Positions 1,201 through 12,340 of a stretch of DNA of 12,340 nt are shown here, piece after piece. Source of the DNA: Bdellovibrionota bacterium (lineage in GTDB: Bacteria > Bdellovibrionota_C > UBA2361 > JBGSMV01). The notes beneath the pieces are model-generated. The model was not told where the DNA came from, did not search any database, and worked only from the letters and a program-made list of their open reading frames with translations. The position numbers and the translations under genes are program-made. The stretch covers positions 1 through 12,340 of the forward strand of contig JBIKWF010000121.1 in assembly GCA_044356455.1 (NCBI GenBank). Reading direction: 5' to 3'. Position 1 is the stretch's first letter. Each line of letters starts with the position of its first letter.

Positions 1201-1320
1201 AGGAACCTGAAAAACCTCCATTCCTAATAAACCTCTGCGTCCTCTGTGGTGAAATTTTCATAAAGAAATTCACCACAGAGGACGCAGAGTTACACAGAGG
1301 TGAGTTTCTCAGAGGCTCCC
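1201..1320. mobile_element. Composite TIR/hairpin MITE-like element, copy A
   Basis: Ends AGGAACC--TGAAAAA and TTTCTCAGAGGCTCCC; perfect 21-bp internal inverted repeat 1233-1253/1269-1289; lies between convergent genes. Confidence 0.75.
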
Positions 1321-1764: not shown

Positions 1765-1769
1765 ATCTT

Positions 1770-1849
1770 CTCTGTCCTCTGTTCTTTAACAACTTAAATC
1801 AACCACAGCGGGCGCAGAGTTCACAGAGCAAACTTTTTCGAAGCTTACT
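1770..1849. mobile_element. Decayed composite element, copy B (right half)
   Basis: AACAACTTAAATCAACCACAGCGGGCGCAGAGTTCACAGAG...TTTTTCGAAGCTTACT|TA aligns with copies C (reverse complement) and E; its end coincides with the cutA stop codon. Confidence 0.7.
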
Positions 1850-5070: not shown

Positions 5071-5202
5071 GGGAAGCTCTGAAAAAGTCCACTCTGTGAG
5101 CTCTGTGCCCTCTGTGGTTGATTTAAATTGTTGAAAAACCACAGAGGACACAGAGATCACAGAGAAAAAAAAATAGAATATCGAGGTTTTTCAGAGATTC
5201 CT
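5071..5202. mobile_element. Composite TIR/hairpin MITE-like element, copy C (inverted relative to E)
   Basis: TA|GGGAAGCTCTGAAAAA ... TTTTTCAGAGATTCCT|TA; 28-bp internal inverted repeat 5092-5119/5137-5164 with 2 mismatches; TTAG at both junctions. Confidence 0.85.
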
Positions 5203-5247: not shown

Positions 5248-5290
5248 CTTAGTGGTCTTTGTGGTTGTCTTTTCATTATTATGAAATTTA
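5248..5290. repeat. Possible relic hairpin arm of the same family
   Basis: 9-nt units CTTAGTGGT-CTTTGTGGT-TG followed by an AT-rich palindrome TTTCAT-TATT-ATGAAA. Confidence 0.3.
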
Positions 5291-5312: not shown

Positions 5313-6095
5313 ATGATGAAGCATATTGTCCCCATCATCTCTGGGAAAGGCGGAGTGGGAAAATCCACCGTAGCGGCGAATCTCGCGGTTGCTCTCGCAC
5401 GCACCGGCGCTTCCGTTGCACTGATTGACAGCGATTTTTATGGCCCGAGCGTGCCGACCCTGTTTGGGGGCGGCGCTATCCAGACGGACCATGAGGAGAA
5501 AATTATTCCTCCGCTTAAGTTTGGGGTGAAGTACATTTCCCTCGGCTTTTTTCTAAGGAATCCCGACGACGCCATTATTTGGCGTGGCCCGATGTTCAAT
5601 AAGGCTCTCACCCAGATGTTCCAAGATGTGAACTGGGGTGACGTGGACTACTGCATCATTGATATGCCTCCAGGAACGGGAGACGCGCAGCTCTCCCTCT
5701 CTCAGCTCGTAAAGTGCCGGGGAGCAGTGGTGGTGACTACCCCGCAGGAAGTCGCTCTTGCCGACGTAAGGAAAGCCGTCAACATGCTCTCCAAGGTCAA
5801 CATTGATGTGCTTGGTATCATTGAGAACATGTCGGGATTTATTGCACCCGACGGCACACGGCATGACATTTTTGGCTCTGGGGGCGGAGCTTTGCTGGCA
5901 CAGAACCTAGGGGTACCGCTCCTCGCCACCCTCCCAATCCAGCCGGAAATTCGCGAGGGAGGGGATAAGGGCGTTCCTAGTGCCTCCAGGGACGACAGCC
6001 AAGCCGGCCGGGCCTTCCAAGAGATCGCATTGAAATTAATCAATATTCTTGATAGCAAGCTTGCAGCGCAGCCAGCACTACAGGTGGTGAATTAG
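5313..6095 (+). CDS. mrp: Mrp/NBP35 (ApbC) family P-loop ATPase, Fe-S cluster carrier
   Basis: SGKGGVGKST, DSDFYGPS, IIWRGPM, DMPPGTGD, VTTPQ, IENMS, IFGSGGG. Confidence 0.93.
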   Translation: MMKHIVPIISGKGGVGKSTVAANLAVALARTGASVALIDSDFYGPSVPTLFGGGAIQTDHEEKIIPPLKFGVKYISLGFFLRNPDDAIIWRGPMFNKALTQMFQDVNWGDVDYCIIDMPPGTGDAQLSLSQLVKCRGAVVVTTPQEVALADVRKAVNMLSKVNIDVLGIIENMSGFIAPDGTRHDIFGSGGGALLAQNLGVPLLATLPIQPEIREGGDKGVPSASRDDSQAGRAFQEIALKLINILDSKLAAQPALQVVN

Positions 6096-6240
6096 GGAGT
6101 CTCTTTAAAAGTCCTCCTTCGTGCTCTTCGCGTCCTTTGCGTCCTTCGCGTTAAATAAACCCGGCGCGTAATGTATTGCACAATAACGCGAAGGACGCCG
6201 GGGACACGAAGGGGAAAAACAAAGTTCCTCAGAGGTTCCC
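6095..6240. mobile_element. Composite TIR/hairpin MITE-like element, copy D (different internal cargo)
   Basis: TA|GGGAGTCTCTTTAAAA ... TTCCTCAGAGGTTCCC|TA; four 9-nt units (CTTCGTGCT, CTTCGCGTC, CTTTGCGTC, CTTCGCGTT at 6117-6152); perfect 15-bp inverted repeat 6139-6153/6184-6198; starts within the mrp TAG. Confidence 0.8.
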
Positions 6241-6281
6241 TAGCTCCTCTAAGGCAACAGTTCCATTAAGGTAATAGGCCC

Positions 6282-6794
6282 ATGTTCTACTTTATTGTTT
6301 CAGTCCATTTCTTTCTTTGTTTGCTCTTAGTTGGCCTCGTTCTTCTTCAGCAGGGGAAGGGCGCTGATATGGGTCCCGCATTTGGCTCCGGGGGCGCAAA
6401 TTCTTTGTTTGGTGCTGCAGGAGCTGCTCCCTTCATTGTAAAGCTCACCACAGGCGTCTGCATCCTCTTCATGGTGACCTCCATTTTCCTCATTAAAAAT
6501 TACGATAAATTCGCGGCTTCGCGGGTTGCTGTAGGCGACGCTCTGTCAGGGTCAGTGCTTGATGGGGCGGCACTTGGGGGTTCGGAAGCCTCAAAGCCAG
6601 CCGCTGAAACAACTTCAGAAACAGCAACGACTGAAGCTCCTTCAGCAGCAGCCCCCTCAGAAGCGGCCCCCGCCGCAGCGGCAGTTCCGCTTGCTAAAGA
6701 TGCCGCTCCTGCATCGGAACCAGTTGCGGCCCAAGGTTCCACTACTGGCTCTAAGGCCCCAAGCGCAGCGTCAGGAAGCGTGCCCACAAAGTAG
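6282..6794 (+). CDS. secG: Preprotein translocase subunit SecG with long Ala/Pro/Ser/Glu tail
   Basis: LVLLQQGKGADMGPAFGSGGANSLFGAAG, two TM segments, followed by tRNA-Leu(GAG) as in the conserved secG-leuU arrangement. Confidence 0.95.
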   Translation: MFYFIVSVHFFLCLLLVGLVLLQQGKGADMGPAFGSGGANSLFGAAGAAPFIVKLTTGVCILFMVTSIFLIKNYDKFAASRVAVGDALSGSVLDGAALGGSEASKPAAETTSETATTEAPSAAAPSEAAPAAAAVPLAKDAAPASEPVAAQGSTTGSKAPSAASGSVPTK

Positions 6795-6915: not shown

Positions 6916-6998
6916 GCCCAGATGGTGGAATGGTAGACACGCCAGCTTGAGGGGCTGGTGGACGCAAGTCCGTGGAGGTTCAAGTCCTCTTCTGGGCA
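6916..6998 (+). tRNA. tRNA-Leu (anticodon GAG), CCA not encoded
   Basis: Acceptor GCCCAGA/TCTGGGC+A; D loop GGAATGGTAGAC; anticodon stem CCAGC-TTGAGGG-GCTGG; long variable arm GGAC-GCAA-GTCC; T arm GGAGGTTCAAGTCCTC. Confidence 0.97.
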
Positions 6999-7065: not shown

Positions 7066-7129
7066 GCTCCTTGGTCCAAATACTCATTGGCCTAAGTGCT
7101 CCTTGGCCTAAATGCTCCTAGGGCTCAAT
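7066..7129 (+). repeat. Degenerate 16-bp tandem repeat, 4 copies
   Basis: GCTCCTTGGTCCAAAT / ACTCATTGGCCTAAGT / GCTCCTTGGCCTAAAT / GCTCCTAGGGCTCAAT. Confidence 0.85.
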
Positions 7130-7199: not shown

Positions 7200-7304
7200 C
7201 TTTGGCGACCTCGGCGATGAATTTCTTCTTGAAAATTCAACCAAGGGGGGACGCTAAAGTGTACAGAAGTGTATTCAGACTGAAGGTTTTCAGAGGTTTC
7301 ATTA
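7200..7304. mobile_element. Heavily decayed composite element, copy F
   Basis: Hairpin remnants CTTTGGCG/CGCTAAAG and TGAATTT/AAATTCA (loop region resembles copy A), plus a right-TIR-like AGGTTTTCAGAGGTTTCATTA. Confidence 0.45.
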
Positions 7305-7352: not shown

Positions 7353-10300
7353 GTGTCCAGCAAACCTGCATCTGACAGCCACCCACAAGAATCAACCCCG
7401 CTTCCACCAACTACGTTCTCCGAGCATTTTGAGTTCGGAAAGCGAGAGCCTGAGCTTTATGCTCTTTGGGAGAAGGGCGGTTCGTTTTCTTTCGACTACG
7501 CCAAGCCCTCGCCAAAGCTCCCTCTCAATGAGCAGGCGTTTGTGCTTTGCATGCCGCCGCCGAACGCCAACGGCGAGTTACATCTCGGCCACTCCTATGG
7601 CTACTCAATAATGGACACCCTTGGCCGATACTACAGGGCCCAGGGCAGACGTGTGCTTCTTCTTCCGGGTAAGGATCACGCAGGCATTCAGACCCAAGTT
7701 GTTTTCGAGAACAAACTCCGCGCCGAGGGAAAAGACCTCACCAAGATGACGCGCGAGGAACTCTATGATGCGTGCTACGCCTTTTGCATGGACCGCTCGA
7801 ACTACATGCGAGCGCAAGAAAAACAGCTCGGCGTTTCGGCAGACTGGAAGCGCGAATTTTTCACCCTCGATCCGCGCCTTACCAAAGTTATTTATGAAAC
7901 ATTCACCAAACTTTGGAATGATGGCCTGATTTACAAAGGCAAGCGAATTGTTAACTGGTCCGTGCTCTCAGGCACCGCAATCTCAGATGTAGAGGTTGAG
8001 CGCAAAGAAGTTGAGGGCACGCTCACTTACATTCGCTACCCCTTTGTCTCGAAACCTGGCTCGCCTCGTACAAAACCAGCAGCGCTTAGCTCAGAGGCGC
8101 AGATTCACCAAGGCCCGAACGGCGTTTCCCTAGTCCTTTCAAGCAAGGAATATGGAGCAGGGGACATTCTAACCATACCTGCCGCCAAGGAGGGAGAAGA
8201 AGACAAAAGGCTGGTATGCGTTGAGGCGCTCCACGTGTCCGCGCAAACCACCACTCTTAAGAAGCTTTGCGAAGAGCTCTCAGTCCCCGATGAATTAGGG
8301 CAGCTCAAAACTGCACTTGATGCGTTTCTTGCCGCAGGCGGCGGGGCCATTTCGAAATGTGTCTCTTACTTTGAAGTCACCGAAGACATGATCACGGCGA
8401 CTACTCGGCCTGAGACAATGCTCGGTGACACGGCGCTTGCCGTTCACCCCAAGGATCCTCGCTACGCACACGTGGTGGGGACTCAGGTGCAGGTGCCGCT
8501 CATCGGAAGAAAAATTCCCATTGTCGCTGACGAACGAGCAGAGATGGGATTTGGAACAGGCGTGATCAAAGTTACCCCGGCCCACGACTTTGTGGACTTT
8601 GATATTGGTGCTACGCACAAGCTACCTGTGGTGCAGGTCATTGGACCTGACGGCAAAATGACCGATGAAGCAGGACGCTTCGTTGGCCTGGAAGCAAAGA
8701 AATGCCGGGCGCAAGTTGTCGCTGACCTTGAAGCAGAAGGCCGAGTGCTGCGGATTGAGAAAATCAAGCACAAAGTGCCTATCGCCGAACGCAGCAAAGA
8801 CATCATCGAGCCCCTTATCTCAGAGCAGTGGTTCATCGCCGTTGACGCTCCCGGGAAAAGCCTCAAGGAAAAGGCGCTTGCTCTCGTGGAAGCCGGCAAG
8901 ATTCAGATCCATCCACCGCACTTTAGGAAGGAATTTGAGCACTGGCTTAAGAGCCTTAGGGACTGGAACATCTCGCGCCAGCTCTGGTGGGGGCACAGAC
9001 TTCCAGTTTGGTACAAGACAGGCGCAGATGGCAAAGAGGAACTCTTTGTCGGATCGGAAGCACCCAAGGGTGAAGGCTGGCGCCAGGAGACCGATACTTT
9101 CGACACCTGGTTCTCCTCTGGGCAATGGGCATTCTCAACGCTTGCGGGATGCGGGGAAGTGGACCTGGCTACGGGGGCATCGCCTCGCGGAGCGTTCCCA
9201 TCCCAGTGCATGCAGATGGGCCGCGATATCCTTTTCTTCTGGGCCTGCCGCATGCTGCTGCTTACCGCCTACCGCATGAGCGAAGTTCCTTGGCAGAGCA
9301 TCTACTTTACTGGCCTCATCCGCGATGAACAGGGCCAGAAGATGTCGAAATCAAAGGGCAACGGCGTTGAACCTGGTGTCATGATTGCAAAGTATGGCGC
9401 CGACGCACTGCGCCTCGCGCTGCTCTTTGGCACCACTCCAGGAAACGACGTAAACATGGGCGAAGGGAAAATTGGCGGATACTCGAAGTTCGTCAATAAG
9501 CTCTGGAATGCGGGTAAGCTGCTCGAAATGCGCGTTCTTGGCGGAGTCTCAGGCCAGCTCCCCACACCTCCTAAACTCACCAGTGATGCCGCTCGCTGGA
9601 TAGTGGATGAGACTAACAAGCTTCGAAAGCAGGTCCGCCACTTGATGAACACGTACCAGCTTGGTCAAGCACTTACGGAGCTTTACAGCGCGACGTGGGA
9701 CACCTTTTGTGATTGGTACCTTGAAATCGCAAAAGTGCTCTCCAAAGACGAAAACTCTCCGCAAAGAGGCGAGCTCCAGTGGGCCGCCCAGTATAGCTTC
9801 GGGAGCATTGTTGAGATGCTGCATCCCTTTATTCCCTACATTACCGAGGAGCTCTGCCAAAAGCTTCCTGGCCTGGTAGCTGGCACAACCGTCTGCGGTA
9901 GCGAGTGGCACGCCGACTATGTGTTTAGTGACGCAAAAGGCGCAGCTGCCCCTGGAGCACCGATTGCAGAAGTAGTTGAAATTGTAAAAGCGATTCGCTC
10001 CAGCAAGGCGGTACTTGGCGGCTTGGGCTCAGGCATCCCTGTGGCACTGACAGGCGGCTCCCTCTCTGCCGAGGGAGAATTGCTCGTACAAGAACTTGGG
10101 CGAATTCGCCTCGTTAAGCCTCAGGAGATTCCGGCTGAGCGCTCGGTGAAAAAAGCTTTCTCGCTTGGCGTGCTGACGTTCGACCATCCCGACCGAGAGG
10201 GATTTGCACAGAAACTTAAGAAAGAGGCCGAGAATCTGAAAGCAACTATTGAACGTCTTGAGTCGCGGCTCAATTCGGATTTTGCGGCTCGTGCACGGCC

Positions 10301-10391
10301 CGATGTGGTTCAAGGAGAAAGGGATAAACTCGCCACTGCCCAAAAGACCTTGCAGCATCTCTCGGCGGAGCTGGAGGCGTTGGGTGGGTAG
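7353..10391 (+). CDS. valS: Valine--tRNA ligase with an insertion in the editing domain
   Basis: PPPNANGELHLGH (HIGH), DHAGIQTQ, ATTRPETMLGD, GTGVIKVTPAHD, DWNISRQLWWGHR, DTWFSSG, KMSKSKGN and C-terminal coiled coil; GTG start with GAGGAG SD at 7340-7345. Confidence 0.97.
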   Translation: MSSKPASDSHPQESTPLPPTTFSEHFEFGKREPELYALWEKGGSFSFDYAKPSPKLPLNEQAFVLCMPPPNANGELHLGHSYGYSIMDTLGRYYRAQGRRVLLLPGKDHAGIQTQVVFENKLRAEGKDLTKMTREELYDACYAFCMDRSNYMRAQEKQLGVSADWKREFFTLDPRLTKVIYETFTKLWNDGLIYKGKRIVNWSVLSGTAISDVEVERKEVEGTLTYIRYPFVSKPGSPRTKPAALSSEAQIHQGPNGVSLVLSSKEYGAGDILTIPAAKEGEEDKRLVCVEALHVSAQTTTLKKLCEELSVPDELGQLKTALDAFLAAGGGAISKCVSYFEVTEDMITATTRPETMLGDTALAVHPKDPRYAHVVGTQVQVPLIGRKIPIVADERAEMGFGTGVIKVTPAHDFVDFDIGATHKLPVVQVIGPDGKMTDEAGRFVGLEAKKCRAQVVADLEAEGRVLRIEKIKHKVPIAERSKDIIEPLISEQWFIAVDAPGKSLKEKALALVEAGKIQIHPPHFRKEFEHWLKSLRDWNISRQLWWGHRLPVWYKTGADGKEELFVGSEAPKGEGWRQETDTFDTWFSSGQWAFSTLAGCGEVDLATGASPRGAFPSQCMQMGRDILFFWACRMLLLTAYRMSEVPWQSIYFTGLIRDEQGQKMSKSKGNGVEPGVMIAKYGADALRLALLFGTTPGNDVNMGEGKIGGYSKFVNKLWNAGKLLEMRVLGGVSGQLPTPPKLTSDAARWIVDETNKLRKQVRHLMNTYQLGQALTELYSATWDTFCDWYLEIAKVLSKDENSPQRGELQWAAQYSFGSIVEMLHPFIPYITEELCQKLPGLVAGTTVCGSEWHADYVFSDAKGAAAPGAPIAEVVEIVKAIRSSKAVLGGLGSGIPVALTGGSLSAEGELLVQELGRIRLVKPQEIPAERSVKKAFSLGVLTFDHPDREGFAQKLKKEAENLKATIERLESRLNSDFAARARPDVVQGERDKLATAQKTLQHLSAELEALGG

Positions 10392-10409: not shown

Positions 10410-10502
10410 CGGCGCCCTGGTACAGGGCGCCCTACCAAGCAATGGTATTGCCATTCAACGTGAGGGCGATACATGGTAGGGCGCCTTGTCCCTAAGGCGC
10501 CG
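10410..10502. repeat. Inverted doublet of GTAG-family REPs (REPIN/BIME-like)
   Basis: Minus strand 10435-10410 GTAGGGCGCCCTGTACCAGGGCGCCG; plus strand 10476-10502 GTAGGGCGCCTTGTCCCTAAGGCGCCG; each is GTAG plus an 8-9 bp stem; the 40-nt spacer contains AATGG-TATTG-CCATT. Confidence 0.8.
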
Positions 10503-10567: not shown

Positions 10568-12118
10568 ATGGCGCCACCTATCGCAATCTTCTATGACCTA
10601 GAAACCTCCGACAAAAGCCCCATCGGCCAAATCCTCAACTATTCATTCATTGCGGTAGACCAATCACTCTCCATGGTGGCGGAGTGTTCGGGAGATGTGC
10701 GCCTTTCCCGCCTACAGCTTCCAAGCCCAGAAGCTATCCTTAAGAACCGTGTTAACGTTGCCACCCTACAAAAGACCACGAGCACCACCGAACGAGAGGC
10801 CATGGCTCGAATTGCAGAGTTTATTGGTGCCCAAATTAAGGCGGCGCAAGCAACCAATAAGGGCAACGCGCAATACGGAAAGCAGAAACTTATTTTTATA
10901 GGGTATAATTCCAGCAAATTCGACCTCCCGTTTCTACGCACCAGCTGGATTCGGAGCGGCATAAATCCTTATTTCAACGGGAATCTGCTCTATCGAGATG
11001 TGCTCTTGGCGGTGAGAAAGCTCTCGGTAAGCCATCCAGACTTCCCTCGTGTAGGGGCTCAGCACCAGAGCAGCCAAGATGAAGGACTTCCCGCTCGACT
11101 TTCCCTATCCCTGGAGACGGTCACTCACGCGCTAAAACTTCTTGAGGGAGCCCAGTCGCATCACTCACGCGATGATGTGATTCTCACGATAGATCTCGCC
11201 AAAGCACTCCGTGAGCGCTTTGGTCTCGATGTGCTTTCGTATGAGTCTTTTGAAGCAGGCGCTTGGCTCAAGAGCCCAAGCCCCGGAAGAATATTCTGGG
11301 CTCATTCTCCCAATTACGATCTTTCGAAGAGTCAGCTCTTCGAACGCACCCCGTTTGCACTTCTAGAGGCAAACTATCGCTACTGCCTTTTGGTGAACCT
11401 TGAGCGCTTCGCAAAAGGCGAAGGGAGGCGCAGTATCCAGTGGTTTAACCAGGCAGGCGGAGCTCTTTATTTTGGGGGAGCGGCATCTGAGCAAGAATCA
11501 ATTTCGCTAGAAACAGGTGAAACTTTCGCCCTCGGGGAGCTTGCAGCCAAGGCGAGAGAGGAATGTAAAGGCATCACGCTCACCAATTTTTTCCCCACCA
11601 GCACATGCGATATCGAGCAAGACATCTACCGCCTCGATATGCCTCGCATTGGCGCGCTCGAAACAGCCCTCTGGGGAGGGGACACGAAGCCCCTTTCAGA
11701 GCTTAAAGACAGAGACGCCAAAGTAGTCTACTTGCGTGCGCTTCTCGCGGAATACCGCTGGCAAGGAGGAAGAATTCCCGTGCCACCTGAAAGCGCAGCC
11801 TCTGAGCAGGATGCGAAAATGGCAAAAAGCCTTAAAAATTACGCGCTCTACCGCTACGGGGGCAAACTCCAAATGGCCAAATCCCTCGACGGAGCCAAAG
11901 AAGACGAGGCCTTCCACCCGACTCTTACGAATCTTTTCGAGCGGCTTACCAAATGCAAAGAGCAGGCGTCGGCGCGCGGCGCTAGTGAAGACCTCGCTCT
12001 ACTGGCTGCGGTGCAGGAGTACTATGACCGCTCGGAGATAGTGCAAATAGCGGGGCCTGAGCTGCTTGGCCAATCGCAAGCAGACCCTCACGCAACTGCG
12101 GAAAACGGGACTACTTAG
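10568..12118 (+). CDS. DEDDh 3'-5' exonuclease, divergent Exonuclease I (SbcB)-like
   Basis: ExoI motif FYDLETS, LPSPEAIL, ExoII motif GYNSSKFD, SLSLETV, ExoIII motif HHSRDDV; C-terminal DIEQDIY resembles the SbcB D-x-D/E-x-x-L-Y motif; 516 aa. Confidence 0.8.
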   Translation: MAPPIAIFYDLETSDKSPIGQILNYSFIAVDQSLSMVAECSGDVRLSRLQLPSPEAILKNRVNVATLQKTTSTTEREAMARIAEFIGAQIKAAQATNKGNAQYGKQKLIFIGYNSSKFDLPFLRTSWIRSGINPYFNGNLLYRDVLLAVRKLSVSHPDFPRVGAQHQSSQDEGLPARLSLSLETVTHALKLLEGAQSHHSRDDVILTIDLAKALRERFGLDVLSYESFEAGAWLKSPSPGRIFWAHSPNYDLSKSQLFERTPFALLEANYRYCLLVNLERFAKGEGRRSIQWFNQAGGALYFGGAASEQESISLETGETFALGELAAKAREECKGITLTNFFPTSTCDIEQDIYRLDMPRIGALETALWGGDTKPLSELKDRDAKVVYLRALLAEYRWQGGRIPVPPESAASEQDAKMAKSLKNYALYRYGGKLQMAKSLDGAKEDEAFHPTLTNLFERLTKCKEQASARGASEDLALLAAVQEYYDRSEIVQIAGPELLGQSQADPHATAENGTT

Positions 12119-12240
12119 GGAGCCTCTGAAAAACCTAGATATTTTATTTCTTTCCCTCCGTGTTCTCTGTGCCCTCTGTGGTTTTTCAGCAATTTAAAAC
12201 AACCACAGAGGGCACAGAGCAGATTTTTTCAAAGCTTCCC
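12118..12240. mobile_element. Composite TIR/hairpin MITE-like element, copy E
   Basis: TA|GGGAGCCTCTGAAAAA ... TTTTTCAAAGCTTCCC|TA; perfect 19-bp internal inverted repeat 12165-12183/12201-12219; starts within the exonuclease TAG. Confidence 0.85.
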
Positions 12241-12247
12241 TAGGAGT

Positions 12248-12307
12248 CTGTCCCGTAGAAAATTTCTACCACTACATGTTGTGGTGGCAGCGGGACAGCC
12301 CACCTAC
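12248..12307. repeat. Small multi-hairpin element abutting copy E
   Basis: CTGTCCCG (12248-12255) and CGGGACAG (12291-12298) enclose GTAGAAA/TTTCTAC and CCACTAC/GTTGTGG stems; the minus strand also reads GTAGGTGGGCTGTCCCGCTGCCACC, which is REP-like. Confidence 0.45.
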
Positions 12308-12340
12308 GGATTGTGTCCAAAATGAAGATTTATGTTTCTA

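Follow-up and report, generated by a model that had tools for sequence, protein, structure and literature searches.

Element D, between mrp and secG of a Bdellovibrionota bacterium, is probably two repeat families nested in one IS5-type MITE

The gap between mrp and secG in this Bdellovibrionota bacterium holds a short element, here called D, in which a hairpin with arms built of tandem 9-mers is enclosed by terminal inverted repeats (TIRs). The question raised by the locus is where such an interior comes from. The window (the whole 12,340-nt stretch of DNA that was analysed) also contains the related copies A, B, C, E and F, and a preliminary description of it noted that in A, C, D and E the left arm fits the right arm of its own copy better than it fits the other copies. 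Two explanations were offered: either the hairpin is selected or corrected from arm to arm within each copy, or a second, independent repeat family is nested in a TIR shell. The evidence set out here points to the second, and we put the probability at about 0.8 that D combines two repeat families, one nested in the other, and is not a self-correcting hairpin. The features of the locus are collected in Table 1.

Table 1. Coordinates of D and its parts, of the host genes and of the other copies (positions in the window)
Feature	Position	Strand	Remarks
Copy A, second subfamily	1202..1319	.	By eye, loop inverted relative to spacers
Copy B, eroded, largest subfamily	1769..1846	.	Adjoins stop of minus-strand ORF 1849-2169
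Copy C, largest subfamily	5072..5201	.	TTAG/TTAG duplication
mrp/NUBPL ATPase, host gene upstream of D	5313..6095	+	PF10609, E 3e-91
Left target duplication TTAG	6092..6095	+	Includes TAG stop of the mrp/NUBPL gene (ORF end 6095)
Element D, whole MITE	6096..6239	.	144 nt; CTTCGCG-unit subfamily; nhmmer E 6.5e-29
Left IS5-type TIR of D, decayed	6096..6111	+	11/16 to consensus; PWM score 16
D core arm 1, four tandem 9-mers	6117..6153	+	Sense of the arm downstream of GxxExxY genes
D loop, 30 nt, subfamily-specific	6154..6183	.	
D core arm 2, three tandem 9-mers	6184..6211	+	Sense of the arm upstream of GxxExxY genes
D purine-rich spacer (long side)	6212..6223	+	Sequence; subfamily consensus
Right TIR of D	6224..6239	-	14/16 to consensus; PWM score 28
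Right target duplication CTAG	6240..6243	+	One mismatch vs left copy TTAG
secG, host gene downstream of D	6282..6794	+	PF03840, E 4e-18
Copy F, eroded	7204..7299	.	E 7.6e-11
Copy E, largest subfamily	12119..12239	.	At TAG stop of ORF 10568-12118

A recount of the hairpins reproduced the first description exactly: the arms match within a copy over 21/21 positions in A, 26/28 in C, 15/15 in D and 19/19 in E, the loops measure 15, 17, 30 and 17 nt, respectively, and the tandem 9-mer units are as they had been written. The window contains the two-unit 9-mer pattern 14 times, where shuffling predicts 0.04 (maximum 1 in 200 shuffles). By sequence, the two arms of D are unequal, with four units against three, and mismatches occur beyond the 15 inner pairs; RNA folding of the element gives z = -5.0. 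Its subfamily has 47 matches genome-wide, 21 of them at least 100 nt long. The claim that an arm fits its own partner better than the arms of other copies holds between subfamilies and fails inside one: over the 18 loop-proximal bases, the left arm of C matches the right arm of E at 18/18 positions, and its own right arm at 17/18.

The gap between mrp and secG is 186 nt here, and 38 nt after D is subtracted; in relatives it is about 25 (G003), 48 (G004) and 42 nt (G019), a comparison of empty sites by length only, the flanks being too diverged for alignment. In G001 the gap is about 152 nt and the shell is absent. That gap carries an array resembling three 16-nt-spaced direct repeats found in our window at 7066-7125, after the tRNA gene at 6916-6998, where they are single copy in the genome. 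Contigs of four sequencing runs gave no joint skipping D among the matches listed, and contigs cannot show absence; one run contig extends into the left part of D, with 33 differences across 602 nt. A plasmid search with D as the query gave no match. Just 5' of mrp there is a lone CTTAGTG-type arm (window 5248-5263).

The shell was identified from its ends and its target. An end weight matrix finds 912 sites in the genome and 6 in the shuffled genome, and these ends form 315 pairs, of which 237 span 120-140 nt. Of the 307 pairs no longer than 260 nt, 152 have the same four bases on either flank, the permutation null being 62.6 +/- 6.2 with a maximum of 81, and the duplicated target is YTAR, chiefly CTAG, CTAA or TTAG. 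Profile searches put the family at 608 matches and 68 kb; its members are short, non-coding, dispersed and multi-copy, with 4 of 438 long copies within ORFs. In other genomes the TIR of this family also bounds elements of 1150-1154 nt with YTAR duplications, and the 311-aa protein of one of these reaches 347 bits against the IS5-family profile NF033581, for which the cut-off is 140. On the sequence features testable here, D is a predicted non-autonomous IS5-type MITE. The copies look old: nearest-neighbour identity has medians of 0.93, 0.89 and 0.88 in three subfamilies, and 7 of 223 copies in the largest subfamily are at least 98% identical to their nearest neighbour.

Three observations on other elements may be added. 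At L074, shell ends of this family bound a 1045-nt element with a TTAG/TTAG duplication and a 296-aa non-transposase ORF. At several contig ends in this genome, G000 (C63, C85, C99, C171), one and the same foreign sequence interrupts the MITE near the first arm unit; we take it to resemble the 3' end of a group II intron. At the end of the window (12244-12340, running off the end), a member of a second MITE family sits on top of copy E's right target site; this family is about 109 nt long, with a CTAG duplication that is identical in 46 of 71 paired copies, and has 116 long matches.

The transposase itself may have been lost. A PF05598 search of this genome gave no match and no intact IS5 transposase was found, in both cases in a 93% complete assembly; the only trace is a frameshifted C-terminal remnant, 40-45% identical (C113:42716-43185), which adjoins a 67-nt double-ended mini-shell. 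Mini-shells of this kind, 65-67 nt long, border IS5 remnants both here and in G033 (L321:184-1064), the latter remnant having one at each end with outer TTAA/TTAA, and they are a possible source of ready-made shells. The only DDE_Tnp_1 gene in the genome, on C213, was ruled out as the partner, its ends being different. The GxxExxY protein had been put forward as a candidate partner enzyme; because the target duplication and the ends point to an IS5 transposase, the sequences indicate that enzyme, and not GxxExxY, as the mover of these copies.

Taken alone, the shell is ordinary. The interiors fall into subfamilies of 153, 76, 33, 12, 5, 3 and 2 copies, together with 23 singletons; each subfamily has its own 9-mer unit, loop and spacers, and a few chimeric interiors were seen. 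The nested alternative supposed that the two layers are independent, and both are indeed found apart. Of 196 doublets of one pattern, 36 are more than 60 nt from any shell end, and of 142 matches to D-type arms, 39 (a few of them due to chance) lack such an end within 170 nt. Shells likewise occur with unrelated cargo: 68 distinct short shell elements among the fetched loci, this genome included, have interiors in 35 clusters, and of 34 that were folded, 21 reach z <= -2. REP-like cargos lie inside this shell in other genomes (L060, L067, L071, L072 and L149); several look like CGTC-type REP dimers. By exact pattern, the composite of shell and arm is present in 3 of the 124 genomes searched within the phylum, G033 being missed because its units alternate between 8 and 9 nt, and it is confined to one order; it was found in none of 1053 genomes from three other phyla, and viral scans for shell plus arm gave two loci, neither of which is a full composite.

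A GC-rich hairpin of about 70-80 nt is in places inserted into CTCCGCG- and D-type cores, for example at C113:37911-38120 (23 long matches), and is a third nested layer.

Where, then, do the cores come from? It had been suggested that similar repeats flank GxxExxY genes, and the genome bears this out. It has five such loci, of which three are intact, one is frameshifted and one runs into a contig end; every flank in the assembly carries 9-mer arms, which overlap or adjoin the gene ends; at the C211 gene the arms are of D type, 31/31 inverted. The arms point inward around a GxxExxY gene and stand tail to tail in the MITE, and tail-to-tail doublets are also found beside some GxxExxY genes (L001, L165, L177). 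D-type arms in gene polarity occur inside a second shell with CTAG duplications, in five full copies; a search for a third shell gave one full copy only, and no family is claimed. GxxExxY genes are present in 40 of 124 genomes of the phylum. An inverted arm match scoring at least 30 was found at 24 of 31 scored loci in relatives and at 39 of 64 usable metagenome loci (80 loci, minus 9 short and 7 duplicate), with none in shuffles, and the period is 9 in 33 of the 39. Both flanks carry one arm type in 83 of the 100 loci that could be typed among 107, against a null of 26.3 +/- 3.3, and it is at these gene loci that the real covariation of the arms lies. It counts against the nested reading that these arms are short, with little complexity: among cross-locus arm pairs, too, 33% score at least 30, and the own arm comes out best in no more than 11 of 64 close relatives.

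The partner gene family is PF13366 (PDDEXK_3 / GxxExxY). In its acidic-acidic-lysine motif E88 and K90 are invariant, and D78 is present in at least 90% of 55 rows. The model of the protein has a pLDDT of 93.5 and its best structural matches are nuclease folds, with Z up to 7.4 and an rmsd of 3.3 over 97 aligned residues, while a Foldseek search gave no match at E 0.001. The protein is thus modelled as a PD-(D/E)XK fold with no specific structural relative. A Holliday-junction resolvase was not singled out by the fold search, in which Hjc (Z 6.0) is tied with many others. On the protein tree, some clades group by arm type (CATGAAG, 9 rows), and switches of type are frequent; the tree was built by a quick method, with 56 of 104 inner branches open, and because of this poor resolution and of the switching we make no claim of co-evolution.

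It is worth adding that the GxxExxY genes on C1, C216, C36 and C211 share an upstream repeat ending in GTTCT, attC-like by eye, and that 3' of it there is a conserved AAGCAACTT...CGAT motif, which recurs upstream of many of the GxxExxY genes in relatives and may be a promoter. This genome also has two more arm families in gene polarity, of CACAAAG type and CGCGGAG type (43 and 6 loci), which apparently are gene-less derivatives of the cassette; the latter has a 119-nt interior and flanks like those of the C216 cassette.

Some of the cores can be matched to particular genes. With the flanks of 117 GxxExxY loci ranked for each core, the top place went to the resident gene for the consensus sequences of C/E and of the D subfamily, for the G033 element (in which gene arm and core are the same over 32 nt) and for the single G019 element. 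The match is incomplete, which counts against the nested reading. D itself, unlike the consensus of its subfamily, ranks its resident gene third. For the A-type core the resident gene is seventh, and for the CTCCGCG core it is fifth, the best match being a gene of the sister genome G001. The CTTAGTG core and the G001 element have no resident match among the 117 loci; two to three of the eight core types lack one.

It could be argued that all copies descend from one ancestral MITE, whose hairpin diverged by arm-to-arm correction in each copy, through template switching or inversion, and that the likeness to GxxExxY arms is secondary. Such a history would suit an element length that stays near 129-131 nt in several core types and genomes, the limitation of the composite to one order, and two traces of exchange: loop inversions (3/145 and 9/59 copies) and a small excess of compensatory doubles (8 against 3.3 +/- 1.6, and 19 against 9.2 +/- 2.9). 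It is largely refuted by the pairing itself. Own-arm and cross-copy pairing are equal, at 0.903 and 0.897 (n=153) and 0.826 and 0.827 (n=76), and in smaller subfamilies at 0.850 and 0.857 (n=33) and 0.815 and 0.823 (n=12). Since an arm pairs no better with its own partner than with that of another copy, the covariation was inherited from different founders. Rare single mismatches outnumber compensatory doubles by 288:13 and 304:1; r2 between partner positions is at most 0.07 save for one pair of loop bases. The subfamilies differ in loops and spacers, and cores match resident genes in three genomes. We therefore regard it as very unlikely, and neither correction between arms nor selection for pairing in each copy, the first of the two original explanations, is supported as the source of the pattern. 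The slight excess of doubles and the loop inversions do point to occasional exchange between arms.

The same covariation might be ascribed to selection for pairing in an RNA, the hairpin serving as a terminator, an mRNA stabiliser or a small RNA. The positions of the copies are in keeping with this: 76 of 307 end exactly at a stop (odds ratio 2.5 over the available YTAR sites), convergent gaps are favoured (126 of 410 copies against 620 of 3351, odds ratio 1.95), and between co-directional genes the long spacer is downstream in 141 of 235 copies (p = 0.003). So is the lower divergence of the arms compared with the shell ends, with per-site medians of 0.027 against 0.096 (p 2e-7), 0.061 against 0.134 (p 7e-8) and, in a third subfamily, 0.073 against 0.112 (p 0.06), although tandem units may mask changes in the alignment. 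The substitutions themselves speak otherwise. The arms have no G-U bias towards one strand (68 against 61), which argues against tolerance of G-U pairs on a transcribed strand, and transitions are not spared in them (fraction 0.51, against 0.57 in TIRs); the combination of compensatory covariation and G-U tolerance that marks a structured RNA is not found among the copies. None of the elements attains the cut-off of any Rfam family: in the window the tRNA alone does so, and miRNA matches on the hairpins are far below the gathering scores. A scan covering loops of 3-8 nt found no intrinsic terminator (GC stem and U run) at D. A role in RNA could account for retention at gene ends but not for the differing founder units, and we consider an RNA origin of the covariation most improbable.

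The difference in divergence between arms and TIRs disappears at a 2% rare-allele threshold (0.016 against 0.013), but this threshold censors fast sites and the per-site medians are therefore preferred. By rare alleles, the seven fixed positions of the 9-mer are conserved no more than the rest of the arm. Exchange without bias from one arm to the other should not lower mean divergence, and would instead turn single changes into doubles. The lower divergence fits best with a constraint at the level of the sequence, as from binding of a protein, or with conversion between copies; variable sites show little linkage (median r2 0.01). A broader proposal, which we offer as speculative and rather doubtful, is that GxxExxY cassettes are undescribed selfish elements: the candidate nuclease would recognise its own 9-mer arms and spread or repair them by cut-and-copy conversion, IS5 ends would systematically pick up such doublets, and REP-like ones, at end-to-end lengths spaced by about a helical turn, and the nuclease would still homogenise the arms after the death of the IS5 shell. 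Were this true, homogenisation would explain why the arms are better conserved than the TIRs without compensatory change. On the spacing, shell lengths across clusters recur at steps of about 9.5-10 nt (Rayleigh p 3e-4 for the best among 13 periods, with clusters that are not fully independent), which suggests helical phasing of the two shell ends.

The order of events could also have been the reverse, with the shell as target and not captor: the arm doublets themselves would be mobile, and would insert into, or overwrite, the interior of existing IS5 mini-shells. The mini-shells beside the IS5 remnants in G000 and G033 and the few chimeric interiors speak for this, and REP dimers inserted within such palindromes are described in the section of PMC3733652 discussed below. 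On the other hand, shells shorter than 80 nt are rare (7 of 315 pairs) and several of them resemble, by eye, deletion products of full subfamilies, while the spacers vary by subfamily and no single empty-shell sequence is kept. Core, loop and spacer are common to all copies of a subfamily, and each subfamily therefore spread as whole units. We regard insertion of doublets into waiting shells as improbable.

Returning to two nested families, the history we favour is as follows. Arm doublets would first have arisen beside GxxExxY cassettes, or spread from them. At least five founder doublets here, and others in three related genomes, would have ended up between two IS5 ends, and an IS5 transposase acting in trans would have inserted copies of each founder at YTAR sites, where TAA or TAG stop codons are often found. 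The transposase has presumably since decayed, so that most copies would be old and immobile. The arm covariation would have originated among the cassettes, whose two arms change in concert, and each subfamily would then have inherited it. If so, the interiors of bacterial MITEs can come from repeated uptake of the doublets of another system, beyond internal deletion of a parent IS. This single genome also supplies matched pairs of gene and arm for a widespread, uncharacterised nuclease family, and these make possible a test of cognate against non-cognate binding and cleavage.

Two further features of the window may be recorded. A pair of GTAG-containing inverted repeats (10419-10492) follows the long ORF at 7353-10391 and has 13 short matches in the genome. 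The 516-aa ORF at 10568-12118 has no Pfam match; its N-terminus, as we take it, resembles a DEDDh exonuclease.

A search of the open-access literature gave no account of arms flanking GxxExxY genes or of the nesting of shell and core. The genes beside the arms belong to PF13366/TIGR04256, a family described as of unknown function with multiple transfers, and its row in the family table of PMC3424549 has nothing on flanking repeats. For the shell, the closest comparison is MITEPsy1 of Pseudomonas syringae, described as 100 nt long, present in six copies and shown to transpose; its proposed mover is the IS5 transposase of ISPsy2, from whose IS it is thought to derive (PMC3189936). Like the D shell, MITEPsy1 and the IS5-family MITEs have the motif TCTGAAAAA in their ends, are non-coding, and duplicate 4 nt of CTAG or YTAA (PMC3189936). 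Unlike MITEPsy1, the shell here has some 600 copies, and interiors from a second repeat system.

For the nesting, PMC3733652 is a partial precedent. In Halothiobacillus neapolitanus it describes dimers of the CGTC-1 REP within a palindrome of 41 bp, the dimer lying asymmetrically inside this outer palindrome, as in D, and the consensus of that palindrome resembles, by eye, the ends of the shell here. Section 7 of that paper does not call the arrangement an IS5 MITE, and its authors left it uninvestigated; empty outer palindromes were not found in H. neapolitanus. The cargo differs, being a CGTC REP there and the tandem 9-mer arms of a nuclease gene here.

The core is best compared with REPIN-RAYT systems, which, as described, have in common with the GxxExxY system a single gene with flanking inverted repeats, gene-less repeat doublets dispersed between genes, and several repeat groups each tied to one gene (PMC3116915; PMC3733652; PMC3184786). 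The partner in REPIN-RAYT is an HUH tyrosine transposase, whereas here it is a protein of PF13366 with a predicted PD-(D/E)XK fold, and the one Y1_Tnp locus over the cut-off in the genome has no arm motif in 3.2 kb. REPIN units have a palindrome and a GTAG tag, whereas the arms here are tandem 9-mers with no GTAG and no internal palindrome. Because the enzyme fold differs and GTAG palindromes are absent, the core system is not a member of REPIN-RAYT; by analogy it would work like one.
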